From the NCBI GenBank assembly GCA_039809865.1, contig JBDHVW010000023.1, positions 14,947-78,946 of the forward strand: a DNA stretch of 64,000 bases. The letters are read 5' to 3'. A program made the position numbers and the translations under genes. The notes under the pieces are model-generated. The model had not been told where the DNA came from. It was given only the letters and a program-made list of their open reading frames with translations, and made no database searches. Shown in pieces: positions 1,811 through 25,600 of this stretch; position 1 is the first letter of the stretch; every line of letters begins with the position of its first letter. Source of the stretch: Vulcanimicrobiota bacterium. GTDB taxonomy: Bacteria > Vulcanimicrobiota > Xenobia > Xenobiales > QWHO01.

Positions 1811-3292
1811 TTAAGTGTGTACCATGCGCAGGGCGCGCTTGCGGACGAGGTAAGAGAATCCCGCCACCACGGCGATGAGGAGCAGGTTCTCGACCAATCC
1901 GCCCAGGAAGCTGCAGGCGCCCAGCATCAGCAGCATCAGGCCCGCGTAACCGAGCGCGAAGGAGCCGGCCTGGGCCCGGCTGCGAGCCGTCGTGGAGGCC
2001 AACACGCCCAGATAGGCCGCGGCGTAGCAGGCGCCCAGCAGCCAGCAGTAGGCCGGCACAATGGCCAGCGGCGCCAGCGAGCCGAGCTCGAGGCTGACCA
2101 CCGCCGAGTAGAGCACCAGCAGCAGCAGCTCGCTGACGCGGTAGCGCCATCCAAAGGAGGCCCAGCCGTCGACGAACTCCTCGGCCGTCATCTGGGTCAG
2201 GGCCAGCGATTCGAGCGTGCGGCGCTCGCGCTCCTCGACCAGCGAGGTCGAGACGCTCATCGAAGCCATCAGGGGCTGCACCACGAAGAGCGCCGGGAAG
2301 GCGTACCAGGCGATCTCCAGGATATGCTGGGGGAGGAAGAACGCCAGGAGCGCCAGAGTGAGGAAAAACAGGCCGTGGTGGTAGAGGAACACGGTGAAAA
2401 CCCCGCCCCCGGCCAGCTTGCGGGCCAGGCGAGCGCTTTCGCGCACCACGATAGGGTTCTCGTTGAAAGGCGTCTGGGAGCCGTTGCTGCTCGGTTTGCG
2501 CGCCCCCTCCGGGATGGCCGGCGTGGAGTCGCCGCGCATCAGCCACTCCACCGCCAGCTGGCGGCAAGCCATCACGAACGAGAGCACCGCCAGGCCCATC
2601 AGGCAGAGCCCGAAGTCACCCCGGCTGGCCAGTCCGTAGACACCCAGCAAGAGGGAGCTCATGCCGAAAGTCACCGCGACCGGCGAGTCCATGTCGATGC
2701 GGTCGCACACGGCGCAGAGCAGGAAGATGTTGCAGGAGACCAGGTTGATGGCCAGGCAGACCAGATACCAGACCGCGGGCACGATGACCAGCAAAGTGGG
2801 CTCGAGCCGGCCTCCCTGCTGTACGTGCAGGACCAGCAAGCCAAACACCGCCAGGCTGAGGAGAGCCGAGCTCCTGGTGGCGGCGCGCAGGGAGAACATC
2901 GTCACCGAGTCGATCCACTGCGAGGAGGGCATCTTGGTGGTCAGAATCTCGTCGAGGCTGCGGCCGAAGCGCAGCATGCCGATGATGGATGCATCCTGAT
3001 AGGCGGAGAGGAACGGGTACACCAGCGTCACGATCGCGGCCGCGATCAACCACAGGTAAGCGCTGTGGGGGTAGAGGAAAGAAATTCCCGCGACGGCGGC
3101 GCTGGCCAGCACGGTGAGGAAGAGCGACCAGCTCCGGTATCGCCTGCGCGAAGGGCTGGACAACATCAAGGCCAGCGGTGGAGCTTCTTGCGCTTTCAAA
3201 GCGATCGCTTCAGGCACTCTGGGAAATTCGACCGATCGAGCCGAACGCCTTTCGGGCATGAAAAAACCGCCCCTCGCGAGGCGGATTTTCAA
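1811..3292 (-). CDS. Polytopic integral membrane protein of unknown function (about 10 hydrophobic segments)
   Basis: Track ORF 493 aa with many TM-like hydrophobic stretches and balanced composition, co-oriented upstream of the S8 peptidase. Start uncertain (alternative MPERRS at about 3259). The overlapping + ORF 1793..3328 is an R/G/H-rich antisense artefact. Confidence 0.55.
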   Translation of the reverse strand: MKIRLARGGFFMPERRSARSVEFPRVPEAIALKAQEAPPLALMLSSPSRRRYRSWSLFLTVLASAAVAGISFLYPHSAYLWLIAAAIVTLVYPFLSAYQDASIIGMLRFGRSLDEILTTKMPSSQWIDSVTMFSLRAATRSSALLSLAVFGLLVLHVQQGGRLEPTLLVIVPAVWYLVCLAINLVSCNIFLLCAVCDRIDMDSPVAVTFGMSSLLLGVYGLASRGDFGLCLMGLAVLSFVMACRQLAVEWLMRGDSTPAIPEGARKPSSNGSQTPFNENPIVVRESARLARKLAGGGVFTVFLYHHGLFFLTLALLAFFLPQHILEIAWYAFPALFVVQPLMASMSVSTSLVEERERRTLESLALTQMTAEEFVDGWASFGWRYRVSELLLLVLYSAVVSLELGSLAPLAIVPAYCWLLGACYAAAYLGVLASTTARSRAQAGSFALGYAGLMLLMLGACSFLGGLVENLLLIAVVAGFSYLVRKRALRMVHT

Positions 3293-3300
3293 TCGGGGCG

Positions 3301-3810
3301 CTACTTCGTGTACGCCGGCAAGCTATAATACGGGCGGAAGAGCTTTTCTTCGAACATGGAAGCGAAATCCACACCGTAGCGCGTCCAGCCCCAGAGGTGC
3401 CAGTCGCGGCCCATACCCCGGCACTGGAAACGATAGATGGTGTGCTCGTTCTCGCGCAGGAAGCCGGCCACCTCTTGCTTGGTCAGCTCCTGACCCGGAG
3501 CCTGGGCGCTGTAGCTGGCGTGAATCTGAGCCATGACCTCTTGCATCACTTTGCGGGTCACGATCTTGTCGGGCTGCCAGCCGGCATTGGGCGTGATCTC
3601 GACCAGCGTCAGCCTCTCGATAGCCGACTGGGGCGTGTAGACACGTTCCTCGTCATTGGGGCCGGTGGAGTCGAGGTCATACAACTCGGTCGCCAGCATC
3701 AGCGCGAAGTCGGCCTGGGTGCACAGGTCCTTCTTGAGCTTGCCGGGCTGGGCCCAGGTGGGGGCGGACAGCAGGCCCGCTATCAACAGCGTGGTCACCA
3801 GGCGTTTCAT
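3301..3810 (-). CDS. Small secreted protein of unknown function (signal peptide MKRLVTTLLIAGLLSAPTWAQ)
   Basis: The C-terminal 169 codons of track ORF 3301..4500 start at ATG 3810 with a classical signal peptide. The upstream ORF part is R/G/P-rich junk. Confidence 0.6.
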   Translation of the reverse strand: MKRLVTTLLIAGLLSAPTWAQPGKLKKDLCTQADFALMLATELYDLDSTGPNDEERVYTPQSAIERLTLVEITPNAGWQPDKIVTRKVMQEVMAQIHASYSAQAPGQELTKQEVAGFLRENEHTIYRFQCRGMGRDWHLWGWTRYGVDFASMFEEKLFRPYYSLPAYTK

Positions 3811-4031
3811 CGCGTACTTGACTCCTTTTCCATGGTACCCCGCTGTTCGCGGAACAAGTTCAAGCTTCCTGGCGGGCCGAGCGTTCCCCCTCGAAAGTCG
3901 CTCCAATCTACCGTCGCGGCTGGTAGATCGATCACTTCCTTGAATCCCCCGGGCCCTGTATCCTGTGTCCAGAAGATTCGACTTGAAGCCCGACGGATGC
4001 CCCCCCCGACCGTCGGGCTTCTCTCTTTCTC

Positions 4032-5972
4032 TCAGAGACTCCAACTGGCGCTGAGCATTCCGCCGGGAACCAGGTCGAGAGGGCGCAGGTTCGTTCCGGC
4101 CGCGTCGCACACGTGGAGCTGGCCATTGTGGTCGAGCACGATCTGCGTGCCATCCGGGCTCCAGGTCGGCTGGCCGATGTCGTCGCCAAAGGAAACCGGC
4201 AGGTTGGTGGCCGGACCCAGCAACCCCGGGCTGTAAGCCGCCGTGGCGATGGTTACGCCGGTGGCGTTCAGAAACAACACCCGGTCGCCAGCCGAGTTCA
4301 GGCGCGGGGCGTCGGCCTCGATTCCGAACGACTGGACCGCGCTCGTGTCCACATTGGTCTCGGTCAACTCCCAGCGGAAGGTCACGCCTCCCGTATCCAC
4401 GGGATGGGAGGCGAGAAAGCGCCGGTCGGAGCTGCTGGGCACCCAGTTGGCCTGCATGCTGCGGGACGGATTCAACCCATCCACCACCGGGTCGGGGCAA
4501 TAGTTGGAGTAGGACAGGAGGCCCACCTGAACGGGCGCCGCCCCGGTGAGGCGCGTCACCCAGTACTCGAGCTGGCGCGGCGTCTGGTTGAAGGTCGTGT
4601 AAACGACCTGCGTGCCGTCGGGCGTCCAGGAGGCTCCCACGATGGGCCCGGTGGCCACCGTCATGGGATGGCGGCCGTCGGCGTCCACGACGATCACGTC
4701 GGTTCCGCCCGGGCGAACGCTCAGAAAGGCCAGTTTGCTACCGTCCGGTGAAAATTCCGGATTGCACACCGAGGTGTAGCGACGCCGCGTGAGGCTGGTC
4801 CGATCGCTGCCGTCGGCATTGATCAGCTCGATCTCGGTGCCGTTGGCCCCCTGGAACGCGATGCGGCCGCGCGGAACCACGAGCACGCGCCCCCCCGCGC
4901 CGATGGTGGCCGGAACCGAGCCGCCGCGCTCGTCCACCACCCGGCAGGTGAGCGTGAAGATCTTTCCCTCGGATCCGGGTGGAGGAACCCATTCCCAGCG
5001 GCTGAGCCAGTTCCCGGCGGACTCGTCCCACACCATCCGCTGCGAGCCGGGATGCGAATAGGCGCCACCTGGCTCCCCGGGCGGGCCCTGAACGCTCCAG
5101 AGGCAGGCCAGGCGGTCTCCGTCCCTGTCGCTGGCGCGCACCACCAGGCTGAGGTGGCCGCCCGCCCCGACCGTGGCATCCACGCCTCCCGGCAGTCCAC
5201 TGACGATTGGCCTGGGCTCCACCTTCACGGGGCCGACCAGGGTCGGGTTCGCGTTGGCTCCCGCCAGGCTCAGCGAGGGGGGCGCCCCGGGCGGCGTGAC
5301 GAGAGGACGGGTCACGAGCTCCACCGGGCCTTGCGGGAGCAAACCGGAGCCCGTGCTGACCTTTCCCTCGGGAGACACGCTCAGCGTGACCGGGGCCTGC
5401 ACGCGCGTCAAGAGATGGGAGGGACGCCCCAGCGCGCTGCCCGCGCCAGCCTCGAGGGACGCACAGACCACCAGTCGAAAGGCCCCATCTACCAGCGGCT
5501 GCGTGGACAGGGCCGAGCCGTTGGGCAAGAAGACGATGACCGCGTCGCTCGCCTGGGGGCGGTTCCAGGCGGTCACGTCCAGCCCGGAGCCGGCGCAGTC
5601 GCGCTGGGTGTCCAGCCACTCCTCGGTGGTCCCGCCCGGCCAGTAACCCGCGAACAGGTAAGCGTTCGGGAACTCGCTGGCGAAGCTCCAGCGCTCCACG
5701 AAACGAGCCTGACCAAAACCACGGACCTTGTAGCAGCCCGTCGCGTGCCCCAGGGCTCCATTCTGGCTGGGGAAGGCGATCCCCACGGGCTCGCCCAGCC
5801 GCATCGCTTGCTCGCGGGCGGCGCTGAGGCGCCCCGCCAGGGCTTCGGACAGACCTTGCGTGTCGGCCTGGGAGCGCTGGTGTTGCGACGCCTGCAGCCC
5901 GAGGACTACCAGCGCGGCCAGGATGGCCACCACCAGCATGGTCTCGAGCAGCGAGGCTCCGCGACGTCTCAC
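4032..5972 (-). CDS. Prepilin-type N-terminal domain protein fused to TolB/WD40-like beta-propeller repeats (PilY1-like tip-adhesin candidate)
   Basis: N-terminus MRRRGASLLETMLVVAILAALVVLGL matches the class III (type IV pilin) leader/cleavage motif G|ASLLE with a hydrophobic helix. Repeated SPDGSKLAF, WTPDGTQVVY and WSPDGTQIVL units are typical of TolB-like propellers. ATGA-type coupling with the upstream gene (5969..5972). Confidence 0.7.
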   Translation of the reverse strand: MRRRGASLLETMLVVAILAALVVLGLQASQHQRSQADTQGLSEALAGRLSAAREQAMRLGEPVGIAFPSQNGALGHATGCYKVRGFGQARFVERWSFASEFPNAYLFAGYWPGGTTEEWLDTQRDCAGSGLDVTAWNRPQASDAVIVFLPNGSALSTQPLVDGAFRLVVCASLEAGAGSALGRPSHLLTRVQAPVTLSVSPEGKVSTGSGLLPQGPVELVTRPLVTPPGAPPSLSLAGANANPTLVGPVKVEPRPIVSGLPGGVDATVGAGGHLSLVVRASDRDGDRLACLWSVQGPPGEPGGAYSHPGSQRMVWDESAGNWLSRWEWVPPPGSEGKIFTLTCRVVDERGGSVPATIGAGGRVLVVPRGRIAFQGANGTEIELINADGSDRTSLTRRRYTSVCNPEFSPDGSKLAFLSVRPGGTDVIVVDADGRHPMTVATGPIVGASWTPDGTQVVYTTFNQTPRQLEYWVTRLTGAAPVQVGLLSYSNYCPDPVVDGLNPSRSMQANWVPSSSDRRFLASHPVDTGGVTFRWELTETNVDTSAVQSFGIEADAPRLNSAGDRVLFLNATGVTIATAAYSPGLLGPATNLPVSFGDDIGQPTWSPDGTQIVLDHNGQLHVCDAAGTNLRPLDLVPGGMLSASWSL

Positions 5973-6433
5973 CAGGTGCCCCCATCCTGGAAATGCACGA
6001 GTTGGAAGAGCGTGGGGCGCGCCGGGGAGAGGTCGAGGTCGGCGCTCAGTTGCACGCGCGCGGTGGGCTGATCGAGCGAGCCCAGCAGGCCCACCGAGGT
6101 GATTCGCATGAGGTCGTGGCTGTCACGCCAGCTCGCATCGAGCTGCACCTGGTAGAAGCCGAGCGGGCTGCCGTCCAACTCGGGGAGCTCCTCGCTGTAG
6201 CAGAACCGGGGCTGTCCGGCGGCCAGGGTAGGCGGGAAATCGGGATCGAGCGCGAGCTTGAGCCGTGCGTCCTCGAGGCCCGCCCAGGCCAGGGCTCGGG
6301 CCCGCTCGCCGGCCGTCAGGTCGGAGGCTCCGCGATAGCACTCCTTGCTCTGCTCGAACAGCCCCATCGCCAGCGAGAAGATGCAGACCGACATCAACAA
6401 AGTCACGATCAGCGCCGAGCCGCGTCGCGTCAC
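5969..6433 (-). CDS. Pilin-like protein with GspK/PilX-type N-terminus (no Glu at +5)
   Basis: GTG start at 6433 overlaps the TGA of the upstream gene (GTGA). N-terminus VTRRGSALIVTLLMSVCIFSLAMG gives a short basic leader, Gly, then a hydrophobic helix. Sits in an operon between two other pilin-like genes. Confidence 0.5.
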   Translation of the reverse strand: MTRRGSALIVTLLMSVCIFSLAMGLFEQSKECYRGASDLTAGERARALAWAGLEDARLKLALDPDFPPTLAAGQPRFCYSEELPELDGSPLGFYQVQLDASWRDSHDLMRITSVGLLGSLDQPTARVQLSADLDLSPARPTLFQLVHFQDGGTW

Positions 6434-6960
6434 GGGCGGGCCACCTCGGCCTGCAGCGTGACCACGCCGGCCCCTTCCTGCACCGAAAGGCGCACTTGCA
6501 TGAGGCCCGGCTCCAGCCAGGCGGCCGAGAGCCCGACCGACTCGGCCACCACCGAGCGACGCCCCTCGATCTCGCGCACCAGGTTGCGGTCCGGATCCAC
6601 GTAGAATCGCACGTTGTCCAGCGCCACGGCCGAAGGGTCGAAGCCCGTCCCGGAGGCCGGCAACCATTCCTGATTGGGCCGAGGGCGCAGCAGCTCGATC
6701 CGGCTGGCCGGAGCGCCCGTGGGCTCGAGGATCTGGTGAGCCTCCTGCAGCTCGAGACACAGCTGCGAGAGAGCGCGAGTCGATTCCAGGCGGCGATCCT
6801 GGCGCGAGTTGAACCGGAGAAACTCGGAGTAGCTCGCCAGCAGATTGGCGAGCAGGGCCATGACCAGCCCGAACAGCAGCATCGTAACGAGCGCCTCGGG
6901 GATCGTGAAGGCTCTACGGCCCAAGATCCACCACCGTCGTGCCAGAGAAGGTCCGGCCAA
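6430..6960 (-). CDS. Type IV pilin-like minor pseudopilin (GspI/J- or PilV/W-like)
   Basis: N-terminus ...RRAFTIPEALVTMLLFGLVMALLANLL is a prepilin-type N-terminal methylation-like segment. Overlaps both neighbours. Confidence 0.65.
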   Translation of the reverse strand: MAGPSLARRWWILGRRAFTIPEALVTMLLFGLVMALLANLLASYSEFLRFNSRQDRRLESTRALSQLCLELQEAHQILEPTGAPASRIELLRPRPNQEWLPASGTGFDPSAVALDNVRFYVDPDRNLVREIEGRRSVVAESVGLSAAWLEPGLMQVRLSVQEGAGVVTLQAEVARP

Positions 6961-7699
6961 AGTAGCTGGTGCTGGCCATCAGGCGTACCTGCCCGGGCCA
7001 CACCTGCCAGCCACCGGTGCGCAGCACCTTGAGCGCATTCTTGACGCGGACCTGGCGCCCGTCGCGGCTGATAGGCGGCAACAGGGTCGCGTTGCCGGTC
7101 ATGGGCACGACCGACCAGAAGAACATCGCGTCCACGGGCGCGCCGCCGGGCAGCAGCGCCGTGGCCCGGTAGTCGGCTTCCTGCTGTCCGCTCAGGGGGT
7201 TGGGCCCGCTCACCCGGTCGAGTCGGATGGTGAGGTCGTCGGCCGGGTCCAGACGGTTGGGCTCACTGATGAGCGTGGTCAGGCGCACCCGGTCGCGCGG
7301 ACCGTTCGCGCTCCAGGCCACTTCGACGGCGACCGGAAAGGCGGAGGCGGGGAAGCGCCGGGGATCCCCGGACGGGACTTCCAGGGAGGAAGCCGGGGAG
7401 AGAAGCTCGCGGGCGGGGCCGCGCTCGGTGAGGACGGTGAATCCAGGATGGTCAGGCCGTGTTTTGGAGCCTATCTTCGTCGACCAATCCGAGCTAAAAT
7501 TCGTGGAATTACGTGCCCAGAGCCGTAATTGGTCGAGCTCGGACCGCGCCAGTAAAGTCGCCTCCATCTGCCTTTGGGACCATCGGCGATAACCCAGAGC
7601 ACGATGGAAAGTGCCGACGAACATCAGCACAACGGCGGTCAAAAGGAAGATGGCCAGCACAACTTCAGAAAGCGACATCCCCCGCCATCGCCGCAGCAT
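6914..7699 (-). CDS. Type IV pilin-like minor pseudopilin (GspH/J-like)
   Basis: MLRRWRGMSLSEVVLAIFLLTAVVLMFVG matches G|MSLSEV (Gly, hydrophobic, Glu at +5). First gene of the minus-strand pilin operon. AT-rich putative promoter region 7700..7760 lies upstream. Confidence 0.65.
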   Translation of the reverse strand: MLRRWRGMSLSEVVLAIFLLTAVVLMFVGTFHRALGYRRWSQRQMEATLLARSELDQLRLWARNSTNFSSDWSTKIGSKTRPDHPGFTVLTERGPARELLSPASSLEVPSGDPRRFPASAFPVAVEVAWSANGPRDRVRLTTLISEPNRLDPADDLTIRLDRVSGPNPLSGQQEADYRATALLPGGAPVDAMFFWSVVPMTGNATLLPPISRDGRQVRVKNALKVLRTGGWQVWPGQVRLMASTSYFGRTFSGTTVVDLGP

Positions 7700-8012
7700 T
7701 GCTTCAGGTTAGCAGGCGGAATACCGAAAATCAAGCTGTTTATGGCATTGAATATCTCGCTTGGCCCCTGGTGGTAATCGACCCGGAAACCCCACCGGGT
7801 ACAGTCAGAATCGAGGCGCCGACTCACGCATAGCTCGTCCTGGCGGTTTTCCGAAATCCCGATTGAGGGCAGCTCAAGCAAGAAATCACACAATTCGAAC
7901 AGGGTTTCGAAATTGCTCGAGAAAGGCTTTTCCACGGCCCTCGGTGGACATGAAGGCCCCCGAAAGGGAGCGGACGAAGGAACTTCCACTTTCTCCCGGA
8001 GGACTACGTCTC

Positions 8013-11000
8013 ATGGCGGCCAGCCTTGCCGATCTTCAGACCTATATCAGCGAGCAGGTGAGCGGAGAGGAAGCTGCGTTCGTGCGCGGCTTCAGTGAAG
8101 TGCTGTTCGATAAAGCTTATCCGGAGTTCTTGGAGCGGTTCCAGCCCGACGGACTTCTCGCGGTCACCATGGGAGCGCTGAAGTGGATCGAGCAGGGTCC
8201 GCCCGAGCAGATCAAGGTGCGCGTCTACAAGCCGGAGGCTGCTCAGCACGGCTGGACGTGGCCCGGCAGCGCGATGGAGATCCACCTGGGCGACCGGCCC
8301 TTCCTGGTCGACAGCGTCCGCGCCGAGATCCGCCGGCACGGCTACGAAGTCGCCCACAATCTGCATCCCATCCTGCAGATTCACCGGGACGCCGACAGCA
8401 AGATCGTGCGCGCCGGCGGCAAAGGCAAGCCGAACCAGGAGTCTTATCAGCTCTTCTTGCTCGACGAGGCGCTCGAGCCGGCCCGGGCGGCCGAGCTGAC
8501 CGAAGCGGTGACCCGTGTTCTGCAGGATGTCGTTCTGGCCACCGACGACTACCCCAGGATGCGCGAGAAGGCCAACGCCATGGGCGAGTACCTCGAGCAG
8601 CAGCGCGCCGGGGTGCCCGAGGCGCGGGCCAACGAGCTGGCCGAGTACGCGCAGTTCCTGAAGTGGCTGGGGGAGGGCAATTTCGTCTTCCTCGGCTACC
8701 GCGAATACTCCATCGAGGACGCCAAGCTGAGCATGGATGAGGGCTCCAGCCTCGGCATCCTGCGCGGCACCGTGAAGACTTCCAACTACCGCGATCCGGT
8801 GCCGCTGGCCAAGCTGCCCGAGAACCTGCGCCAGCGCATCACCAGCGGTCCCCTGGTGGTGGTCACCAAGTCGAACGCCGAGTCGACCGTCCATCGCCCT
8901 GTGCGCATGGACTACGTCGGGGTCAAGAAGCTCGAGAACGGCCAGGCGGCCGGCGAGCTGCGCCTGCTGGGACTGTTTACCAGCACGGCCCTGGCCACGC
9001 CCTGTAAAGACATTCCCATCCTACGTCTCAAGCTCGCCATCGTGCTGGAGCTGGACGGCAGCCCCGAAGGCTCGCACGACTTCAAGCAGATCGTGACCAC
9101 GTTCAATTCCCTGCCGCGCGAGGAGCTCTTCTGGGGCGAGCCGGAGCAGATTCTGGCCGAGATCCGCACCATCATGCAGCTCGAGTCCGAGAATCGCGTG
9201 CGCCTCACCCTGCGCCGCGATCCGCTGGCCCGAGGCGTGCTGGTGATGGTGGTCATGCCCCGCGAGCGCTTCAACGGCGAGGTTCGTCTCAAGATTCAGG
9301 AGCTGCTGCACGAGCGCTTCAAGGCCGAGCACGTGGACTACCAGCTCTCCATCGGCGAGGACATGTCCCAGGTCCGCTTCCACTTCTTCTTGACGACCGA
9401 GTTCGGGGTCGAGGACACCGACCTCAAGTCGCTGGAAGCCGACGTGGCAGCCCTGACCCGCACCTGGGACGACCTGTTGGAGGAGGCCCTGCGGGCCCGA
9501 TTCGGGGAGAGCAAAGGGCAGCTGCTGGCCGATTGCTATCGGGGCGCCTTCAACGACGCGTACAAAGCCTGCAATAGCCCCGCCTGGGCCGCCGAAGACG
9601 TGGGCCGCATGGAGGAGTTCGACGGGCGTGATTACCTGGTGGGCGTGCACTCCGACGCCGACGTCACCTGGCTCAAGATCTACCATCGGCGCCACAACCT
9701 GACCCTGTCCGACACCATGCCTTTCCTCGAGAACCTCTCGCTGGTCGTGCTCGAGCAGCTCTCCTTCGGGGTGAAGTGCAAGGACAAGTCGCCCTGCGGC
9801 GTCGACGTCTACCGCGTGCTCAATCGCGCCCGTCAGCCGCTGCCCGAGAAGGTCCACGCGCCCCTGTGCGAGGCCCTGGTGGCCCTGCTCGACGGCCGGG
9901 CGGTGGACGACCGTCTCAATGGCCTGGTCCTGGCCGCCAGCCTGGATATCCGGCAGGTGTCGCTGCTGCGGGTCTACCAGCTCTACCTGGGGCAGATCCA
10001 GTCGATCAGCCGGCGCTTCATCAACGACACCATGCTCAAGCATCCCAACTGCGCCCGGCTGCTCTACGACCTGTTCGAGGCCCGCTTCCAGCCCGGGCTG
10101 GCCAACCGCGAGCAGGCGGCGGAGGCGGTCAAAGAACGCTTCATGTCAGCGCTGAACGACGTCACCAGCCTGGTCGAGGACCAGACGCTGCGCGCCCTTT
10201 CCAACCTGATCGACGCCACGCTGCGAGCCAGCTTTTACCTCGGCCACGATCGCATCAGCTTGAAGATCAGCAGCCACCTCGTCTCCTCCATGCCGGAGCC
10301 GCGTCCGCTCTACGAGATCGTGATGGCCGGCCCGGGCGTCGAGGGCATTCACCTGCGCGGCGGCAAGGTCGCCCGCGGCGGACTGCGCTGGAGCGACCGC
10401 CCCGACTTCCGCACCGAGGTGCTGGGCCTGATGAAGACCCAGATGACCAAGAACGCGGTCATCGTGCCGGTCGGCTCGAAAGGCGGCTTCCTCCTCAAGG
10501 ACCCGCCCACCGATCGCGCCGAGCTGGCCGTCTACGTCTCCGAGCGCTACAAGACGTTCATCCGCTCCCTGCTCGACCTGACCGACAACATCGTGGACGG
10601 GAAGGTCGTCCAGAACCGGGATCTGGTCATCTATGACGAGCCCGATCCCTACCTGGTCGTGGCTGCCGATAAAGGCACGGCGACGTTCAGCGACACCGCC
10701 AACGGCGTGGCCCACGAGTTCGGCTTCTGGCTGGGGGACGCGTTCGCGTCGGGCGGCTCGTATGGTTACGACCACAAGAAGGAAGGCATCACCGCCCGGG
10801 GCGCCTGGGAGTGCGTGAAGCGCCATTTCCGCGAGCTCGGGATCGACCTTTTCAAGCCCTTCACGGTGGCCGGCATCGGCGACCTGTCGGGCGACGTGTT
10901 CGGCAACGGCCTGATCTACTCCGACCAGATCAAGATGCTGGCGGCCTTCAACCACCTGCACATCTTCCTGGACCCCGATCCGGATCCGGCCAAGAGCTAC

Positions 11001-12743
11001 GCCGAGCGCAATCGCATGTTCCGGCTGCCGCGCTCGACCTGGGACGACTATGACAAGTCGCTCATCAGTGCGGGCGGCGGCGTGCATCCCCGCCACGCCA
11101 AGAGCATCAAGCTCACTCCCGAGGTGAAGAAGGCCCTGCGGATCGAGGCCGACGCCCTCAGCGGCGACGATCTCGTCAAGGCAATCTTGCGCTCCCCGGT
11201 GGACCTGCTCTGGAACGGCGGCATCGGCACCTACGTGAAGGCCACTTCGGAGCGCAACGCCGAGGTGGGCGACTCCAACAACGACCAGGTGCGCATCGAC
11301 GCCCACGAGCTGCAGTGCCGCGTCATCGGCGAAGGCGGCAACAACGGCCTCACCCAACTGGCCCGCATCGAATACGCGCGGCTGGGCGGGCGCATCAATA
11401 CCGACGCCATCGATAACTCGGCCGGCGTGGACATGTCCGACCACGAGGTCAACATCAAGATCCTGTTCCAGCCTTTGCTGCAGAGCGGCAAGCTTACGCT
11501 CGAGGAGCGCAACACCATCCTGGGCGAGATGACCGACGAGGTCAACAAGCTGGTGCTCTACGACAATTTCCGCCAGTCGATGGCGATCAGTATGGCGGAA
11601 CGACGGTCCAAAGAGGACATCGGGCTGTTCAGCACCCTGATCGACTACCTCGAATGGCGCGGCCCCCTCAAGCGCGAGGTGGAGTTCCTGCCCGACCAGA
11701 AGGCTATTCTGGAGCGCCAGCGCAACGGCGAGGGCCTCACCCGGCCGGAGCTGGCCATCGTGCTGGCCTACAGCAAGATGGGCCTGTATCGGCGCCTGCT
11801 GGACACCGACTTCCCCGAGGAGCCGCACTTCCAGCACTACCTCACCAACTACTTCCCTACGCTGATGCAGCAGCGTTTCCCCGAGGAGATCAAATCGCAC
11901 CAGCTGCGGCGCGAGATCATCGCCACCCAGTTCACCAACAAGGTGGTGGACATTCTGGGCATCACGTTCGTGCACCGCACCATCCGGAACACCGGGGCCA
12001 CGCCCGTGGCGGTGGTGCGCTCGGCGCTGATGGCGCTGGAGATCCTCAACTTCGACTCCCTGCTCGAGGACATCTTCGCGCTGGACAACAAGGTGGCCGC
12101 CGCGGCCCAGTACGACGCGCTCTGGAGCGCGCTGGAGACGGTGGAGAGCGTGGTCAACCAGATGCTGCTCATCCACGGCGTCACCGGCTCTGTCAGCGGG
12201 TTCGTGCAGGCCTATCGCGATCCGCTGATGGACATCCGCAACCGTTTCCCCGACCTCTTGCCGGCCAACGAGCAAGAGCTGTTCAACGCGCGTCGGCGCG
12301 AGTTCGAGACGCATGGTTTCCCGGCCGAGCTCGCGCGGCAGATCGCCACACTGGCTTACTTGCCCAGCGGCCTGGGCGTGGTGGACGCCAGCCGCAAGGC
12401 CCAGGTCGGCATCGAGAAGGCGGCCCAGCACTATTACGCGCTGGGTGACCGCCTGGCGCTCGGGTGGCTGCGCATCCGCCTGGCGCGGCTGGCCGGCACC
12501 GACAAATGGGAGACGATCGCGCTCGAGGGTCTCATCATGGACCTCCGCCAACTGCAGCTCCGGCTCTCGTTGGGCAGCTTGCGGCACGGCAGCTCGCCCC
12601 AGGCCTTCCTGGACAGCCTGGGCGAGCGGGTGCGCCGCTACGAGATGGCTCTGACGGAGATCCGTGAGAGCCAGAAGCTCTCGCTTGCCTCCTGCGGCGT
12701 GCTGGCCCGGCAGCTCTCGCAAATGGCCCAGACCCTGGCATGA
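8013..12743 (+). CDS. gdh: NAD-specific glutamate dehydrogenase, large (about 180 kDa) bacterial type
   Basis: 1576 aa from ATG 8013 ([15 protein letters not shown]). Contains the signature region [38 protein letters not shown] characteristic of the Bac_GDH family. The track ORF start at 7761 is an upstream in-frame extension without a start context. Confidence 0.9.
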   Translation: [1576 protein letters not shown]

Positions 12744-13132
12744 AGGCGCCTACGCTGCAGTATTCCCTGGCCTGCCTGGGAGTGGACGAGCGACATGGCC
12801 CGCCCAGCTTCAACTACGTGTTCTACCGGCTGCCGCTGGCGGGCTTCCCGTATCGGTTTCCGGCCGACGCGGGCTTCTTTCTGGTCAACGCGTGGTGTGA
12901 CGGCGAAGGCACCTTCAAGCAGCGCTGCGTGATCAGCTCGCCCGAGGGCCAGACGTTGATGGATACCGGCCTGCGCGAGTTGTCCCTGGACAGCCCTCAC
13001 GCCATCGACCAGCAAATCTACTTCTTGCAGGGCTTCACGTTCCCCAGCGCCGGGTTCTACCCGGTCCGGGTCTATCTGGACGAGAAGCCCGTGCTGGAAT
13101 ATTTCCTCGAGGCTTACGAGGCCCCGGAATAG
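12740..13132 (+). CDS. Hypothetical protein (130 aa)
   Basis: ATGA overlap with the gdh stop, non-biased composition (W, Y, F, C present), co-oriented. Confidence 0.5.
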   Translation: MKAPTLQYSLACLGVDERHGPPSFNYVFYRLPLAGFPYRFPADAGFFLVNAWCDGEGTFKQRCVISSPEGQTLMDTGLRELSLDSPHAIDQQIYFLQGFTFPSAGFYPVRVYLDEKPVLEYFLEAYEAPE

Positions 13133-13147
13133 AGGAGCGGTACCGGT

Positions 13148-13513
13148 ATGAGCCTGCCAGACTATCTCGGGGACCTGGCGCGCGGGATCCGCGAAGGTCA
13201 GGAATATGACGCGCACGAGTTGGCCGTTGTTTCTCTGCGGGTGACCGAGCACATCGAGAACCTGTATGCCGAGCTGGAGGCCGATCCCGCGCCCGAGGGG
13301 CTGGAGAGCCTGGACGACGCCACCCAGGAGGCGGCGAACCTCTTCGCCGAGGCGGCCGAGCTGATCATGCGGGCCAACCAGGAAGGCGACCCCTCTCTGG
13401 CAGAAAAAGCACTGGAGTGCGTCCAGGAGGCCTCGGACACGTTGCGGCTGGTGCGCCAGAAAGCCCTCGAGAACAAGACCATCCTGGACGAGGAAGTGGG
13501 GGCGAGCTACTGA
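13148..13513 (+). CDS. Hypothetical acidic protein (121 aa)
   Basis: Follows the previous ORF by 15 nt, E/D/A-rich helical composition, same operon orientation. Confidence 0.5.
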   Translation: MSLPDYLGDLARGIREGQEYDAHELAVVSLRVTEHIENLYAELEADPAPEGLESLDDATQEAANLFAEAAELIMRANQEGDPSLAEKALECVQEASDTLRLVRQKALENKTILDEEVGASY

Positions 13514-13514
13514 C

Positions 13515-14225
13515 ATGGATGCGATTGGCGAGCTCAACGTAAGGGTCGGGCTGAACCTCTGGGGCGGCTCCTCGATGGCCCCGATGGCCTTTCGGCGGCC
13601 GGCCGCCCCCGTGGAGGGGATTCACACCATCGAGCGGGCCCGGGTGGCCCAGGAAAACCTGTCCAAGATCCTCTTTGGCTCCGATCTCTCGGCCGACGAG
13701 CTGCAGGCCTACCGGGCGCGGCTGATGCGCGCGATGGACCTCTCCGACAACCTCGAGGATATGGACGATCGTCTGCCCGAGGTCAAGGAGAAGCCCGTCG
13801 GCGGTCCGCGCGGCAGTTATCATGTCGGCAGCGTGCGCTGGACGCCCGCGCCCGAGTTCCAACTCAAACCGCCGCCCGACTCGATCACGACCTCGCCCCT
13901 GCAACAGGTTCATTCGGTCAGCCTGCTGGAGCGGATTAACGCTTGCTCCGATTGCGGCGTGGCCAAGGGTCCCGACCGCACCGAGTGCGGCCAGTGCGGC
14001 GCAGTCGAGCGACAGCGCGTCTCGCGTGTCGGCATTTTCGTGGCTGCGGCCGGCGAGATGGAGGAAGCCGGCGAGGATGCCGTCGACCTTTCTTATGCCG
14101 GCCTGCAGAAGCTCACCGAGCCCCGCCACGGCGCCGAGCTCGTCAGCACCCGCATGCCGCCGCGCCACATGCGCCGCTTCGAGATGCTGAAGCTCGGTCA
14201 GGACCAGGAGCAGAGAGCGGCCTGA
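13515..14225 (+). CDS. Hypothetical protein with C-terminal CxxC-x12-CxxC zinc-ribbon
   Basis: Starts 2 nt after the previous stop. Motif CSDCGVAKGPDRTECGQCG. Confidence 0.5.
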   Translation: MDAIGELNVRVGLNLWGGSSMAPMAFRRPAAPVEGIHTIERARVAQENLSKILFGSDLSADELQAYRARLMRAMDLSDNLEDMDDRLPEVKEKPVGGPRGSYHVGSVRWTPAPEFQLKPPPDSITTSPLQQVHSVSLLERINACSDCGVAKGPDRTECGQCGAVERQRVSRVGIFVAAAGEMEEAGEDAVDLSYAGLQKLTEPRHGAELVSTRMPPRHMRRFEMLKLGQDQEQRAA

Positions 14226-14285
14226 GGTTCCAGCCTTAGCGTTCCTACTTCGCGGGCTCGGCGGCGCGGGTTGTCTTGCTCGCGG

Positions 14286-14600
14286 GCCTCGGGTGGCTAA
14301 CTCAGGTTTGCATTAGCCGAGGTCTACCGGTTCATTGCTCTGGTGGCTGACCGGGGAATCTGCCTTTGTCGGGTCTCTTTCGTCGGCCGGTTTTGCTCGG
14401 GTGGCTGACTCAGATTTTGCCCTTTGGGTCGGTTTTCGTCGGCCCTTTGCTCGGGTGCTGACTCGGCTCGGGTGCTGACTCGGGTTTGCCTTTGTCGGCC
14501 GGTTTTGCTCGGGGGCTGACTCAGGGTTTGCCCTTTCGGGTCTGTTTTCGTCGGCCGTTCTGCTCCGGGTGTCTCGGGGGGCTGAGTCAGGGCCTGGTGG
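14286..14600. repeat. Degenerate tandem repeat array (about 5-6 copies of a 55-60 bp unit with core GCTCGGGTGGCTGACTCAG and TTTGCCCTTTGGGTCGGTTTTCGTCGGCC)
   Basis: Direct reading: the GCTGACTCAG / GGCTGAGTCAG cores recur at about 14399, 14452, 14470, 14510 and 14578, with conserved TTTTGCTCGGG spacers. Confidence 0.7.
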
Positions 14601-15748
14601 CGTCGGGCGCGGGGGTGCTTTCGTTTCGGGGGGGTTGGCGGTGGCAGCTCGGCCCCGGCGTATTCCGGGAATTTGTCGAGATACTTCGTGCGCTTGACCC
14701 ACGGTTTGTGCGGCCGGAAGGGCTTTCTTGGACGGATGGGGCACGGCGTCAGCTTGGGCTCGAAGGTCGCGAAGGCGACCCGTCGAGGCTGTCCGGCCAG
14801 GACCCTTTGCAGCAGCCTCTCATGGCTGCGCCGGGGGATCGGGCACAAGACCCGTTGGGCCTTCTCTTTCTCGAGCTCGGTGAGACACAGTCTCACCTGT
14901 AGGTCTTCATTCAAGCAGGTCAGGAAATCGCGGGCCTCGGAGGTCCACAGGTCGCCCGCTCGGTCCCAGTAGGGCGAGTTCGGCCGGGCCAGCTTGCGGT
15001 CGCGAGCCAACCCGCGCAGCAAGGGGATCAACGCCGCCCTGCCGTTTCCCGCTTGCAGCCAGGCCGCCCCCTCGTGATAATGGCGTTCGGCTCGGCCCAT
15101 CGGAACCTGTCGGTATTGCTCCACAGCGTCGACCGGTCGCCCCGCCCGTTGCAGCGCCTCTCCGTAGGCCAGCCGCTCCTCGGCGCTGGGACACTTTTTG
15201 ACAAGCTCGGCCCGCACCGGCAGCGCCTCCTGCCGCTGGTGCCGACGCTCGAGAACCTCCGCCAATGGCTTCAGGCCTTCGGGACCCGCCTTCCGCAGGA
15301 GTCTCTCGGCCTTCTCGAGGTGGCCCGCCTCGGCCAGCCTCAACGCCCGCTCCACGCGCGTGCCGCTCCGGAGCCTCCGCTCAAGCTGTTGACCGAGCTT
15401 CAGCAGCTCTCGTTGCGCCTCTCGTAACCGCTGGGGGTCGTGCTCGGCCGCGAGACTGGCCGCCAGGCTACGCGCTGCTCGGACGACGCGCGGAGCGCGT
15501 TTGGGAGCCGACTCCGCCTCGCCCACGGCTCTTTCCGCCCGCTCGCGCAGTGCGGTCCAGTCGGGCTTGAGCTCGGGGAACCGGCTCTGGACGTGCTCCT
15601 GCAACTCCGTCCAACGCTCGCTCTGAAGCGCTCTCGCCAGGCCAACTCTGTCGCCGAAAGCCCAGATTTGGCACTGGCGCACGCTTCTGCGCCCATCTCG
15701 CTGGGAGTGGACCAGGCTGTAGCGGTGACCTTTGTGCAGAAGAAACAT
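14324..15748 (-). CDS. Hypothetical Arg/Glu-rich helical protein with repetitive Pro/Gln/Thr-rich C-terminal tail
   Basis: Track ORF 474 aa. The N-terminal 380 aa are non-biased (W, Y, C, H present). The tail is encoded by the tandem DNA repeat array at 14286..14600, so the 3' end is uncertain. Confidence 0.4.
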   Translation of the reverse strand: MFLLHKGHRYSLVHSQRDGRRSVRQCQIWAFGDRVGLARALQSERWTELQEHVQSRFPELKPDWTALRERAERAVGEAESAPKRAPRVVRAARSLAASLAAEHDPQRLREAQRELLKLGQQLERRLRSGTRVERALRLAEAGHLEKAERLLRKAGPEGLKPLAEVLERRHQRQEALPVRAELVKKCPSAEERLAYGEALQRAGRPVDAVEQYRQVPMGRAERHYHEGAAWLQAGNGRAALIPLLRGLARDRKLARPNSPYWDRAGDLWTSEARDFLTCLNEDLQVRLCLTELEKEKAQRVLCPIPRRSHERLLQRVLAGQPRRVAFATFEPKLTPCPIRPRKPFRPHKPWVKRTKYLDKFPEYAGAELPPPTPPKRKHPRARRHQALTQPPETPGAERPTKTDPKGQTLSQPPSKTGRQRQTRVSTRAESAPEQRADENRPKGQNLSQPPEQNRPTKETRQRQIPRSATRAMNR

Positions 15749-15758
15749 CGTCGATAAC

Positions 15759-15793
15759 CTTGTAGTTCAGAAATTCCAAATCGGAACTACAAG
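15759..15793. promoter_or_regulatory. Perfect 10-bp inverted repeat CTTGTAGTTC-N15-GAACTACAAG just upstream of the start of the 14324..15748 gene
   Basis: Seen directly. Candidate operator or 5'-UTR hairpin in an AT-richer intergenic stretch (15749..16087). Confidence 0.4.
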
Positions 15794-16087
15794 ATCCTCT
15801 ACGGCAAGTTGTACCTCTAGCGACTGAACCTGGCTGGAGGGTGATGAGGCCTGTGCTGGCGTTCGTGCCAATCGCATTGCCGAAGAGGCCTCCCCGGCTT
15901 AAAGTGCTTCGAGCACGAAAGCTTGTGGAGTCGGCGCCTGGTCGCGAAGATGTTCGTGTGCCTTGGCGCCCGCCCCGTCTTGTTCCCCACGCCGGCTCGC
16001 GCGCAGGCGTTCTCGACTCGAAGCTGTTCTGGGGCCGAGCTTGGACCGTGAGCCAGGAGTTCGACCGGATGATTCGAAACGCCCCGG

Positions 16088-16699
16088 ATGAAGAAACTCA
16101 CAACGTTTTTGCTCGTTCTTGCTCTGGCGGCGTTGGTTCAGGCCCAGGCCATCCAGGTCAGCGTCAATCGGCCTGCCAACGGCGCAACCGTCGAAAAGAA
16201 GTTTACCCTCACCGGTACCGCCACGCCTTCGATGATCGTCGAGTGCACCGGCGACCTGCGCGGCAGCGTCTATGCGGACGCGTCCGGCAACTGGCGCATT
16301 CCGCTCGACGCCACGTCTCTCGAGACCGGCGCGGTCATCAACCTGACCGTGCAGGCCCGTGACAATGCCAACAACCGCAGCCGCTCCGTGCAGGTGCAGT
16401 ATGCTCTCAAAGATGGTACGGGCAGCGACGTCACCATTCAGGTGAGCGTGAACACGCCCGCCAACGGCGCCACGGTCGGGAACAGCTTGACGCTGCGGGG
16501 CACGGCGACCCCCGAGATGATCGTGGAGTGCACCGGCACCCTGCGCGGCAGCGTTTACGCTGACAAGCAGGGCAACTGGAGCATTCCGCTCGACGCCAGC
16601 GGCGTGGCCGGGGGCGCTCTCATCAACCTGAGCGTCATGGCCAAGGACAGCTACGGTCACGTGAGCCGGACGGTCACGGTCGAATACGCCAAACGATGA
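16088..16699 (+). CDS. Secreted protein with two tandem about 95-aa Ig-like repeats
   Basis: Signal peptide MKKLTTFLLVLALAALVQAQA. Internal duplication (QVSVNRPANGATV...IVECTGDLRGSVYAD and QVSVNTPANGATV...IVECTGTLRGSVYAD). Confidence 0.75.
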   Translation: MKKLTTFLLVLALAALVQAQAIQVSVNRPANGATVEKKFTLTGTATPSMIVECTGDLRGSVYADASGNWRIPLDATSLETGAVINLTVQARDNANNRSRSVQVQYALKDGTGSDVTIQVSVNTPANGATVGNSLTLRGTATPEMIVECTGTLRGSVYADKQGNWSIPLDASGVAGGALINLSVMAKDSYGHVSRTVTVEYAKR

Positions 16700-16736
16700 C
16701 TTAACGCGCGAGCGTATCGGCCGACATATCCACCGC

Positions 16737-18719
16737 ATGGTATCGGCGCGTTGGGCGGACACTCAGAGGCTGGTCAGCCGGTTCTTTTGGACGGCGGCCG
16801 GCCTCCTTCGTTGGGTGCCGAGGCCCATCCGGGCGGGCCTGGCTCTGATTGCCCTGGTCCTGGGGCTGACTCCGCTCATCGGGATCGGGGCGGGATTCCA
16901 GAATGCTTTCCCGGGCGGCCTGGTGGCCGCCGTGCTGACCGTGGCGGGTGCCGCGCTGACACTGACGGCGTGGCGCGACGAAGCAGACTTCCCCGGGATG
17001 CCCGATTGGCTCCCGAGTTGGGCCGCGATGACGATGGCCGGCGTGCTGGGCGGAGTGTGGCTGGAGTTCCTGAGTCAAAGCGAGATCAGCGACGCCTGGG
17101 CCAACTTCGTCATGGCCGGCGCGGCCGTGATGATCGGGCTGGTCTTTTCGCTGCTGTACTTGATGCGGTCCCTCAAGAAGCGGCTGCTAGAGATGAACCG
17201 TCTCGAGCAGGCGGCGCGCGCGGCGGAAAAGGCCAAAGGCGATTTTTTGGCGACCATGAGCCACGAGATCCGCACTCCAATGAACGGCATCCTGGGCATG
17301 AGCCACTTGCTGGCTCAGACCGAGCTCACGGGCGAGCAGCGGGAGTACGTGCAGACCGTGCAGCAGGGCGGCAAGCTTTTGCTGGCGCTGATCGACGACA
17401 TCCTGGACTACTCCAAGCTCGAATCGGGTAAGCTGGAGCTCGAGCGCATCTGGTTCAGCCTGCGCGAGGAGCTCGATTGCGTCGCCGCAAACCTGGCGCC
17501 GATCGCCCAGACGAAAGGCCTGGAGTTCTTACTCGACGTCGACCCGCACGTCCCCGATTGCCTCCAGGGAGATCCGACGCGCCTCAAGCAAGTGCTGATC
17601 AACCTGCTTTCCAACTCGATCAAGTTCACCTTCTCGGGATTCGTGCGTCTGCGCGCTTACACGCGTAAGAATCGGCTGCTCCTGGCCGTGATGGATTCAG
17701 GCTGCGGGGTCTCGCCCGAGCAACAGAAGAAGCTTTTCACTCCCTTCACCCAGGCCGACGCCTCGGTGACGCGGCGCTATGGGGGCACGGGTCTCGGACT
17801 CAGCATTTGCCTGCGTCTGGTCGAGGCCATGCAGGGAACCATGATGATCGATAGCGCCGAGGGCGAAGGGACGACCATCCGATTCAGCATCCCTCTCGTC
17901 AGCGAGGGGGGGGCGCCGGCCCACGGTCTCGGGCCGCGCCTGCTCGTGGTGGATACGCTTCACGACAGCCTGCAATGCCTGGGCCGGCAGGTCCGCTCGA
18001 CCGGGTTTGCCGTGGAGCTGATCCCCAGCGTCGAGGACGCCTTCCGCAAAGGCCACGAGGACCCGTCGGCCTTCCGCGCTTTGCTGGTGCGCTTGCGGGG
18101 TGACGAAAAGTGGCCCGAGAGCTTCCCCCCGGTGCCGGTCTATCAGTTGGTGCCGTACTCGGAGTCGGCCCAGCGTGAGGAGCTGCAGTCGCGCTCGAGC
18201 ATCGCCGGTTGTTTGCTGGTTCCGTTGTCGGCCCAGAATCTGCGAGCCAAGTTGATGGAGGCCCTTCTGCCCAAGGCCGCTCCGCCTCCGCAGCGCATCC
18301 CCAGTCGCCCCGAGCGAATTTTGTTGGTGGAGGATAATCCGGTCAACGCGCGCCTGGCTACCAAGGTGCTCGAAAAGGGCGGTTACCGGGACGTGGTTCT
18401 GGCGGGAGACGGGTTGAGCGCGATCGAGGCGGTGCGGAAGAACAATTTCGACCTGATCCTGATGGACTACCACATGCCCGACATGGATGGGCTCACGGCT
18501 ACCGAGCGCATTCGGGAGCTGGAGATCCAGACGGGGCGCCGCCGCGTCCCTGTGCTGGCGGTGACCGCCAGCGTTCGTTTGGAAGACCGGGAAGCCTGTA
18601 TGGCCGCGGGCATGGACGCCTTCGTCGGCAAACCCCTCGACCCGGACCGCCTCTACTTCGAGATGGAACGTCTGCTCCAGGCCTCGAACGAGATGGAGCT
18701 ACTGGCCCAGGCTTCCTAG
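16737..18719 (+). CDS. Hybrid sensor histidine kinase / response regulator (membrane N-terminus, HisKA, HATPase_c, C-terminal REC)
   Basis: H-box MSHEIRTPMNGILGM, G-box GGTGLGLSI, receiver ILLVEDNPVNARLA...DLILMDYHMPDMDG. Confidence 0.85.
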   Translation: MVSARWADTQRLVSRFFWTAAGLLRWVPRPIRAGLALIALVLGLTPLIGIGAGFQNAFPGGLVAAVLTVAGAALTLTAWRDEADFPGMPDWLPSWAAMTMAGVLGGVWLEFLSQSEISDAWANFVMAGAAVMIGLVFSLLYLMRSLKKRLLEMNRLEQAARAAEKAKGDFLATMSHEIRTPMNGILGMSHLLAQTELTGEQREYVQTVQQGGKLLLALIDDILDYSKLESGKLELERIWFSLREELDCVAANLAPIAQTKGLEFLLDVDPHVPDCLQGDPTRLKQVLINLLSNSIKFTFSGFVRLRAYTRKNRLLLAVMDSGCGVSPEQQKKLFTPFTQADASVTRRYGGTGLGLSICLRLVEAMQGTMMIDSAEGEGTTIRFSIPLVSEGGAPAHGLGPRLLVVDTLHDSLQCLGRQVRSTGFAVELIPSVEDAFRKGHEDPSAFRALLVRLRGDEKWPESFPPVPVYQLVPYSESAQREELQSRSSIAGCLLVPLSAQNLRAKLMEALLPKAAPPPQRIPSRPERILLVEDNPVNARLATKVLEKGGYRDVVLAGDGLSAIEAVRKNNFDLILMDYHMPDMDGLTATERIRELEIQTGRRRVPVLAVTASVRLEDREACMAAGMDAFVGKPLDPDRLYFEMERLLQASNEMELLAQAS

Positions 18720-18929
18720 CTCAATTCGGGCAGGTCTTCTCGGGAAGCGCGCAGATCGGGGGGAATGGGGGCGCCGCCAGCGGCCAGAATGCCTCCCACC
18801 ATGGCGGCCGTCGTGTCGAGGTCGCCCAGACCCCGCACCGTCTCGTACAGGGCCTCGCATAGTCCGCGCGGCGCGCCGCGCTCCAGAGCACGTAGGGAAA
18901 CATATCGTCCGCGGTGACGCGGAGTGCTT

Positions 18930-22282: not shown

Positions 22283-22295
22283 CAAACTCCAGGTT

Positions 22296-25590: not shown

Positions 25591-25600
25591 GAGCCTGGTG

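Follow-up and report, generated by a model that had tools for sequence, protein, structure and literature searches.

Type IV filaments are primed by a small set of minor pilins, H, I, J and K, which form an initiation complex that starts polymerisation and remains at the tip (PMC7541494, PMC8897410, PMC13533445). Within this complex the K/X-class subunit acts as the cap and the H-class subunit (FimU/GspH) joins the cap to the major pilin, while large adhesins are mounted on K, either in trans (PilC/PilY1, MshQ) or in cis (GspK, CpaL) (PMC7541494, PMC8897410, PMC13533445). One genome can encode several alternative minor-pilin sets, as in Myxococcus xanthus (PMC7541494), and modular pilins, in which a pilin module is combined with a non-pilus domain, are an established class (Raynaud et al. 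2021, PMC8179133). Here we describe a locus of this kind in a 64-kb window, meaning the whole analysed stretch of 64,000 nucleotides from contig JBDHVW010000023.1 of a Vulcanimicrobiota bacterium, with positions counted from its first letter. Positions 4032-7699 are a real four-gene operon, probably for small starter or tip subunits of a type IV pilus-like filament. Its last gene, g4, is predicted to encode a GspH/FimU-class minor pilin to which an immunoglobulin (Ig)-like spacer and a TolB-like propeller are appended. We propose, with a probability of about 0.65, that these genes specify the core minor pilins of the H, I, J and K classes for a type IV filament system of a Candidatus Xenobia bacterium, and that these pilins form a tip complex displaying a ligand-binding propeller.

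The minus strand of this region (Table 1) is filled by four consecutive open reading frames (ORFs), g1 to g4, in a window with a G+C content of approximately 66%. The third-codon-position G+C (GC3) of the four frames is 0.79-0.83, which supports the reading frames. The genes g1 and g2 overlap by 11 bp, and both the g2/g3 and g3/g4 junctions are 4-bp GTGA overlaps, an arrangement typical of translational coupling. An earlier note on this DNA, made from the letters alone, had described four overlap-coupled genes on the minus strand, and the frames and overlaps bear this out. A predicted hairpin just 3' of the g4 stop, whose 12-bp stem is GC-rich and whose T-run is weak, probably marks the operon end. 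Upstream of g1 we looked for a sigma-70-like promoter and found none; the NAD-glutamate dehydrogenase (GDH) gene, which starts at 7761, is divergent from the operon.

Table 1. Window coordinates of the four-gene operon, the predicted domains of g4, the hairpin behind the operon and the platform-protein gene.
Feature	Position	Strand	Description
g1	7699-6914	minus	261 aa, ORF with prepilin motif
g2	6924-6430	minus	164 aa from TTG start; longest ORF from 6960
g3	6433-5969	minus	154 aa, GTG start within GTGA overlap
g4	5972-4032	minus	646 aa, predicted modular H-class minor pilin
g4 residues 1-59	5796-5972	minus	leader MRRRG, cleavage motif G/ASLLE, alpha-1 helix
g4 residues 60-210	5343-5795	minus	GspH/FimT/FimU-class beta-sheet pilin domain
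g4 residues 250-356	4905-5225	minus	Ig-like (Big_9-type) domain, D-x-DGD motif
g4 residues 362-645	4038-4889	minus	six-bladed TolB-like PD40 beta-propeller
Terminator-like hairpin	3985-4021	minus	just 3' of g4 stop; -28.5 kcal/mol, z = -2.9 (RNA fold)
T2SSF (PilC/GspF-type platform protein)	28075-29322	minus	Pfam T2SSF, 4.9e-57

All four proteins begin like class III prepilins, with a short basic leader that ends in Gly (Ala in g2) at position -1 and is followed by about 20 hydrophobic residues. With the predicted cleavage site marked by a slash, the N-termini read MLRRWRG/MSLSE in g1, whose leader has seven residues, MGRRA/FTIPE in g2, MTRRG/SALIV in g3 and MRRRG/ASLLE in g4. These leaders are kept in relatives. 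The glutamate at position +5 (Glu5) is present in g1, g2 and g4, where it is near-invariant within the respective families, and is missing from g3. We scanned the whole window in six frames for a basic leader, G/A/S, Glu/Asp at +5 and 16 hydrophobic residues, which returned five sites across the 64 kb. The beginnings of g1, g2 and g4 account for three of them, and the other two belong to a second, HTTM-associated pilin set described below. Shuffled windows contained 0.06-0.17 such sites on average, and the observed number lies far above this expectation, and the class III N-termini that the earlier note had seen on all four genes are thus confirmed. Public gene calls begin g1 at an internal Met (254 aa; 253 aa in L001, a locus of a close relative; labels of this form denote loci in relatives) and thereby drop the conserved 7-residue leader (7679-7699; L001 2985-3005). 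The upstream ATG and the leader of g1 are kept in L001, as is the TTG start that gives the 164-aa form of g2. Given these internal-Met calls, annotation pipelines may miss the class III signal in the g1 family.

The domain content of g4 was assessed using profile searches and a predicted structure. Its match to the Pfam GspH model (PF12019) covers residues 43-170 and scores 23.1 bits, above the gathering cutoff of 21 by a small margin, whereas the match to the NCBIfam GspH equivalog TIGR01708 spans the N-terminal 66 residues only and stays below its cutoff. From these matches g4 would be of the H class, yet not an orthologue of the GspH of type II secretion systems (T2SS). The Pfam PD40 match scores 44.5 bits; those to Big_9 and N_methyl are weak. 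An AlphaFold2 (AF2) model of g4 built on an alignment of 60 true family members reached a mean predicted local distance difference test score (pLDDT) of 91.9 and a predicted template modelling score (pTM) of 0.82; a model based on an alignment dominated by propeller-only sequences had a pLDDT below 50 at residues 55-265 and was discarded. In the retained model, a 52-residue alpha-1 helix (residues 8-59) packs on a GspH-type domain with two sheets (strands 63-210, pLDDT >90), so that g4, the protein modelled, has the long alpha-1 helix and C-terminal beta-sheet domain of a pilin. An ordered linker leads on to an Ig-like sandwich (~250-356) and a six-bladed propeller (362-645), to which the last strand, 641-645, also belongs. 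The GspH-like fold of the pilin domain was assigned from Pfam and secondary structure. When a profile of the N-terminal half of the g4 family was compared with PDB sequences, the top and all significant matches were type IV pilins aligned over alpha-1, namely Geobacter PilA-N (6.5e-6), followed by PilA, TTHA1219, MshA and GspG. For the propeller, the best fold and sequence matches were TolB and other six-bladed propellers, and PilY1 was absent among the matches listed. A conserved disulphide in the Ig-like domain was considered and found unsupported, the two Cys being present in 30/60 and 38/60 family members.

The earlier note had read the 646-aa protein as a genuine prepilin segment fused to TolB/WD40-like blades and had proposed AlphaFold as a check. 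The model retains the true prepilin and the TolB/PD40 propeller, and between them adds what that description left out, a full GspH/FimU-class domain and an Ig-like domain. The same note had named an ordinary signal peptide as the finding that would overturn it. In each of the four N-termini a short basic region does precede a hydrophobic stretch, as expected of Sec signals cut by signal peptidase I on proteins that have nothing to do with pili. We nevertheless consider this explanation very improbable: the +5 Glu and the -1 Gly/Ala persist across families at ~30% identity, the motif count is far beyond chance, the hydrophobic stretch of g4 extends into the long helix packed on the GspH-type domain, N_methyl is matched in many members of the g4 family (counts below), and the best and all significant PDB sequence matches are type IV pilins.

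The H-class assignment of g4 guides that of its three partners. The NCBIfam matches of g1 to g4 are all sub-threshold and confined to the N-terminal helix, and they are mutually consistent: g1 is weakly matched by XpsI (GspI), PilV and ComGE, g2 by ComGF and TIGR02532 (and by Pfam N_methyl at 17.4 bits), and g3 by GspK, with 18.7 bits against a cutoff of 130 and in the N-terminal part only. If g4 is the H-class member, g1 would then be I/PilV-like and g2 J/PilW/ComGF-like, and the data are consistent with g3 being a K/PilX-like minor pilin. In relatives, g1 homologues were found in the cassettes of L003, L008, L009 and L010, with Glu+5 invariant among them; g1 also carries a long C-terminal extension. 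Glu5 is mostly kept in the g2 family alignment and absent in all four members of the g3 family (4/4), whose C-terminus is conserved. The 154-aa g3 lacks the alpha-domain of GspK, and PilX homologues are likewise without Glu5 (PMC7541494). Family profiles of g1, g2 and g3 gave no meaningful match among PDB sequences. Of the classes that the earlier note had given to the small genes (H/J, I/J and K/X), a K/X-like g3 still fits the data, while g1 is better described as I/PilV-like and g2 as J-like, with the H-class position taken by g4.

The four genes travel together in relatives. In the close relative (L001/L002, Logan DRR438451/50), the operon is kept with genes of 253, 164, 154 and 651 aa and g4 in last place, as in the window. 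Distant relatives (~30% identity) retain homologues of all four genes, in the order g4(644)-g1(264)-g2(171)-g3(147) in L008 and g4(643)-g1(261)-g2(177)-g3(156) in L009 (lengths in aa), while L003 (g1-g4-g2) and L010 (g4-g1) reach the contig end. The propeller-pilin gene is thus first in L008 and L009, last in the window and L001, and second in L003. The order g4-g1-g2-g3 appears to match the gspH-I-J-K and fimU-pilV-pilW-pilX orders, and the window order g1-g2-g3-g4 is a circular permutation of it. A comparison of L001 with window positions 4032-21090 also revealed a rearrangement between these close relatives. In L001 the cassette is an immediate neighbour of both the HhH-GPD/GH77 genes and the HTTM set, whereas in the window it is separated from them by roughly 11 kb with genes for GDH, DUF6941, a hybrid histidine kinase and others, and the cassette together with GDH is inverted relative to L001.

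How widespread the g4 architecture is depended on the search method. Apart from an identical NCBI protein, a word-index search with full-length g4 returned just two relatives over the whole length (70% and 67% identity), the other 195 matches covering the propeller alone; with an N-terminal profile the same type of search gave two proteins only, and scanning genome contigs with three close g4 relatives found nothing. An exhaustive phmmer search with g4 residues 1-240 revealed the family: 404 clusters at 50% identity with E ≤ 1e-3, and 262 with E ≤ 1e-10. Of the top 150 among these 404 relatives, nearly all have a length of 600-770 aa and seem to share the g4 architecture. Among 60 aligned family members, PD40 is matched in 55, N_methyl in 43, GspH in 24 (E ≤ 0.01, best 5.9e-6) and Big_9 in 19 (best E-value 5.6e-8). 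The N-terminal consensus of these 60 members is RRG/FSLxE with a near-invariant Glu5, and the g4 N-terminus itself is invariant among close relatives. Mean pairwise identity is 21% in the propeller, 32-37% in the pilin module and 34% in the Ig domain. The propeller is thus the most divergent module, as would be expected if a conserved carrier bears an effector that diversifies. All family members that bear an organism name come from Ca. Xenobia, a 'Vulcanimicrobiota bacterium' or the unplaced 'bacterium CPR1', which holds two paralogues. These members are annotated in general terms, as hypothetical protein, as prepilin-type N-terminal cleavage/methylation domain-containing protein or as PulG. 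The family is large and apparently restricted to Vulcanimicrobiota; Xenobia is a class of this phylum, which is also named Eremiobacterota or WPS-2.

With a pilin module plus Big_9-like and PD40 domains, g4 is a modular pilin by definition. We take IPR011659 to be the PD40 repeat. Dataset S1 of Raynaud et al. lists the architectures IPR012902-IPR011659 (4 proteins), IPR012902-IPR022346-IPR011659 (2), IPR012902-IPR011659-IPR011659 (1) and IPR012902-IPR002469-IPR011659 (1), as well as one N_methyl-PilY1-GspH protein (PMC8179133), and IPR022346 corresponds to PF12019 (PMC8897410). The N_methyl-GspH-PD40 architecture is therefore already catalogued, although it was only counted, not described, there and is not known to have been characterised. 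To call a pilin-anchored propeller unusual, as the earlier note did, was thus an overstatement, given both the published PD40 modular pilins and a family of this size. The present analysis adds an H-class carrier, a large and apparently Vulcanimicrobiota-restricted family, a conserved H-I-J-K cassette and a propeller that is TolB-like rather than of the PilY1 type.

A prepilin N-terminus could also serve merely as a PilD-dependent export and anchor signal. The g4 product would then be an envelope propeller protein outside any filament, and its neighbours unrelated pilin-like proteins. Several phyla have large expansions of proteins with prepilin-type N-termini of unassigned role, which we counted in favour of this explanation, and proteins A-D of the 'Verru_Chthon cassette' (TIGR02596-TIGR02600) form multi-copy four-gene prepilin-type cassettes with one very large member. 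We observed weak matches to these models, of g4 to protein D and of a 166-aa pilin of the HTTM set to protein B, and neither a major pilin nor an assembly ATPase was found in the vicinity. Membership in the Verru_Chthon group was rejected, the scores being 22.4 and 19.5 bits against cutoffs of 70 and 51.4, with alignments over the N-terminal helix only. We judge the anchor-only explanation to be quite unlikely, since g4 retains a full GspH-class globular pilin domain beyond the signal, the same pilin-like partners accompany it in relatives, in the canonical H-I-J-K order in L008 and L009, and one partner, g3, lacks Glu5 like the tip subunits PilX and GspK.

If g1 to g4 are minor pilins, they need an assembly machine, and Pfam scans of nearly all ORFs of the window detected a single gene for one. 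This is a T2SSF gene for a PilC/GspF-type platform protein (Table 1); it lies beside the HTTM set, so that the earlier note was wrong to report no machinery, while its statement that a major pilin is missing agrees with the scans, which returned no candidate. The platform protein scores 274 bits with GspF and 235 bits with PilC, all below the equivalog cutoffs, and shares 73% identity with its counterpart in 'Candidatus Xenobia bacterium AMX-MBFR-33'. T2SSF genes also occur close to the cassette in relatives, at a distance of 9 kb in L001 and 2 kb in L003, and we regard the platform protein of the window as a possible partner of the cassette proteins. In the window, this orphan gene is convergent with the second HTTM gene, and no ATPase gene was found adjacent to it. 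Two further proteins adjoin cassettes of relatives: a small protein with a T2SSF_N (PF28597) match directly upstream of the propeller-pilin gene (L010 4989-5723), and a 189-aa ORF with a similar-looking N-terminus (L003 8052-8621). Both may be stand-alone look-alikes of the PilC N-terminal domain.

These data bear on another rival, in which the cassette forms a T2SS-like pseudopilus, not an extended pilus, with GspH-I-J-K equivalents and the H-borne propeller recruits or pushes secreted substrates in the periplasm or the secretin vestibule and is no surface adhesin. GspF is the top NCBIfam match of the platform protein, GspK and GspH are weakly matched by g3 and g4, respectively, and the conserved g3 C-terminus could provide a final beta-strand in cis, as T2SS GspK does (PMC13533445); GspH has also been proposed as a substrate binder of the T2SS (PMC8897410). 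Nevertheless, all of these matches lie well under the equivalog cutoffs, and the Pfam scans of the window revealed no secretin, GspE, GspC, GspL or GspM nearby. The region moreover holds at least two differing minor-pilin sets, a pattern documented for the type IVa pili (T4aP) of Myxococcus (PMC7541494), and the fast divergence of the propeller would be more expected of an adhesin than of a housekeeping component of a secretion system. Finally, type IV pili are known in the phylum, whose sole cultured member is a diderm that makes them and moves with them (PMC9758169). On balance, we consider the secretion reading unlikely.

The reading as a tip complex of a type IV filament is the one that we favour. 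Gene structure, motifs, domain folds, conservation of the cassette, family size and lineage are shown by the data above; from them we infer how the subunits would be processed and put together, and how the propeller would reach the tip and bind a ligand. The alpha-1 helices would insert all four proteins into the cytoplasmic membrane, where a prepilin peptidase would trim their 5-7-residue leaders. On the platform protein, g1 to g4 would build the initiation complex, prime the filament and end up at its tip. The subunit without Glu5, g3, would sit on top with g1 and g2, with g4 as the adaptor beneath, linking them to the major pilin. As the C-terminus of g4 runs on into the Ig-like spacer and the propeller, the latter would be covalently fixed at the tip or slightly beneath it, where it would most likely serve as a ligand-binding module, either an adhesin or a receptor.

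Several points weigh against this proposal. In the 64 kb, the Pfam scans detected neither a major pilin nor an ATPase for extension or retraction, and genes for a secretin, PilMNOP and a prepilin peptidase (Peptidase_A24) were likewise not found. The I, J and K assignments of g1 to g3 are based on sub-threshold N-terminal matches, gene order and the Glu5 pattern, and the GspH match of g4 barely exceeds the Pfam cutoff, with TIGR01708 scoring 21.6 bits against a cutoff of 80. The cleavage sites also deviate in two places, g2 carrying Ala instead of Gly at -1 and g4 Ala instead of Phe at +1. Moreover, current models place the H subunit below the I-J-K cap, so that an appendage of ~400 residues could jut out sideways rather than occupy the tip, and no propeller ligand can be inferred from the data.

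Going one step further, we tentatively suggest, as a possibility to which we give less than even odds, that Vulcanimicrobiota (Xenobia) have a lineage-wide alternative to PilY1, a non-pilin adhesin that attaches to the K-class subunit by contributing a beta-strand in trans. The adhesin-like propeller would be fused covalently to the H-class adaptor, H-I-J-K cassettes would be interchangeable, and diverging propellers would set the ligand specificity of one shared machine. If this were true, it would constitute a second, independent way of mounting a large effector on a type IV filament.

The second pilin set of the window, which is associated with HTTM genes (21194-28098, plus strand), encodes a 362-aa protein without assigned function, an HTTM protein of 467 aa, a K-like DUF7305 pilin of ~600 aa, two I/V-like pilins with Glu5 (166 aa and ~225 aa) and another HTTM protein (450 aa). 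The earlier note had counted it among two complete tip-complex candidates, but the set shows just three pilin-like genes, one K-like and two I/V-like, which does not bear out a second complete complex. Its gene order is kept in L001 and in Ca. Xenobia AMX-MBFR-33 (L005). HTTM proteins are vitamin-K-carboxylase-like membrane proteins, which here stand beside pilins. The DUF7305 pilin contains two long Thr/Gly-rich low-complexity tracts with TTGTATTGT repeats (24500-25590, plus strand) and a CGCGCGCGGG motif at its end; the protein may be heavily O-glycosylated or act as a flexible stalk.

Further genes were noted around the two sets. A few kb from the pilin genes, a PilZ-domain protein with two PilZ stretches (33695-34471, minus strand; E 3e-22) is a possible c-di-GMP receptor. 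Two adjacent paralogues (31580-33660, minus strand; 340 and 353 aa) combine Gly/Ala-rich membrane-like repeats with a charged, coiled-coil-like C-terminus, and Pfam does not match them; a Gly-rich 159-aa ORF resembling them lies just upstream of the L003 cassette (8753-9232). A 474-aa protein (14324-15748, minus strand) has a Pro/Lys/Arg/Thr-rich repetitive C-terminal region and no Pfam match. Immediately downstream of the operon terminator, a gene with its own terminator (3267-3284) encodes a small secreted protein of 169 aa (3301-3810, minus strand), which has a Sec-type signal ending in APTWA/QP and no family match.

Minor-pilin initiation complexes determine whether a type IV filament forms and what it binds. 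A family of H-class effector carriers would add a mounting point beyond the K-class subunit and provide a simple model for how a tip complex accommodates bulky cargo; if the PilY1-alternative idea holds, it would also test whether the H position can bear a load. For the Vulcanimicrobiota/Eremiobacterota, an almost wholly uncultured phylum, the cassette would give a first handle on surface appendages, and its definition could sharpen the annotation of proteins that are currently called 'hypothetical' or prepilin-type.

Compared with known systems, g4 resembles the modular pilins PilB and PilC of Streptococcus sanguinis, which have an N-terminal pilin module and a C-terminal non-pilus module that is presumably displayed at the tip. 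Unlike these examples, which carry vWA or lectin modules in a monoderm, g4 combines an H-class carrier with an Ig-like spacer and belongs to a large family with a conserved four-gene cassette. The cassette as a whole is comparable to fimU-pilV-pilW-pilX-pilY1 of T4aP and gspH-I-J-K of T2SS: four pilin-like genes form one operon, the H-class gene comes first in the relatives L008 and L009, a K/X-like member lacks Glu5, and a role in priming and in the tip complex is presumed. It differs from fimU-pilVWX-pilY1 in that there is no pilY1 gene, the large module lies within the H-class pilin itself and the order in the window is permuted; none of the cassette proteins matches the NCBIfam FimU, PilV, PilW, PilX or Gsp models at the equivalog level.

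As in PilC/PilY1, and also MshQ, a large beta-propeller protein would be tied to a minor-pilin initiation complex, with a probable part in adhesion or sensing at the tip. The PilY1 analogy drawn in the earlier note is therefore functional only, as the g4 propeller comes from another family, the TolB class, and is attached covalently through its own pilin module. Membership in the PilY1 family (PF05567, IPR008707) was rejected, as g4 has no such Pfam match at E ≤ 1; nor is g4 a non-pilin of the PilY1 kind, which docks onto a K-class pilin with its C-terminal beta-strand, as g4 has its own pilin module and its last strand (641-645) is modelled within the propeller. Orthology with TolB was rejected as well, since TIGR02800 aligns with the propeller blades alone and scores 48 bits, the cutoff being 343; unlike TolB of the Tol-Pal system, g4 lacks the TolB N-terminal domain and stands in a pilin operon, not in a tol-pal context. 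A further likeness is to CpaL/TadG and GspK, pilin-like tip subunits with an extra domain in the same polypeptide (PMC8179133, PMC13533445). In those proteins, however, the domain is inserted in the K subunit at the very tip, whereas in g4 it is appended to the C-terminus of the H subunit, with g3 as a small K-like partner of 154 aa.

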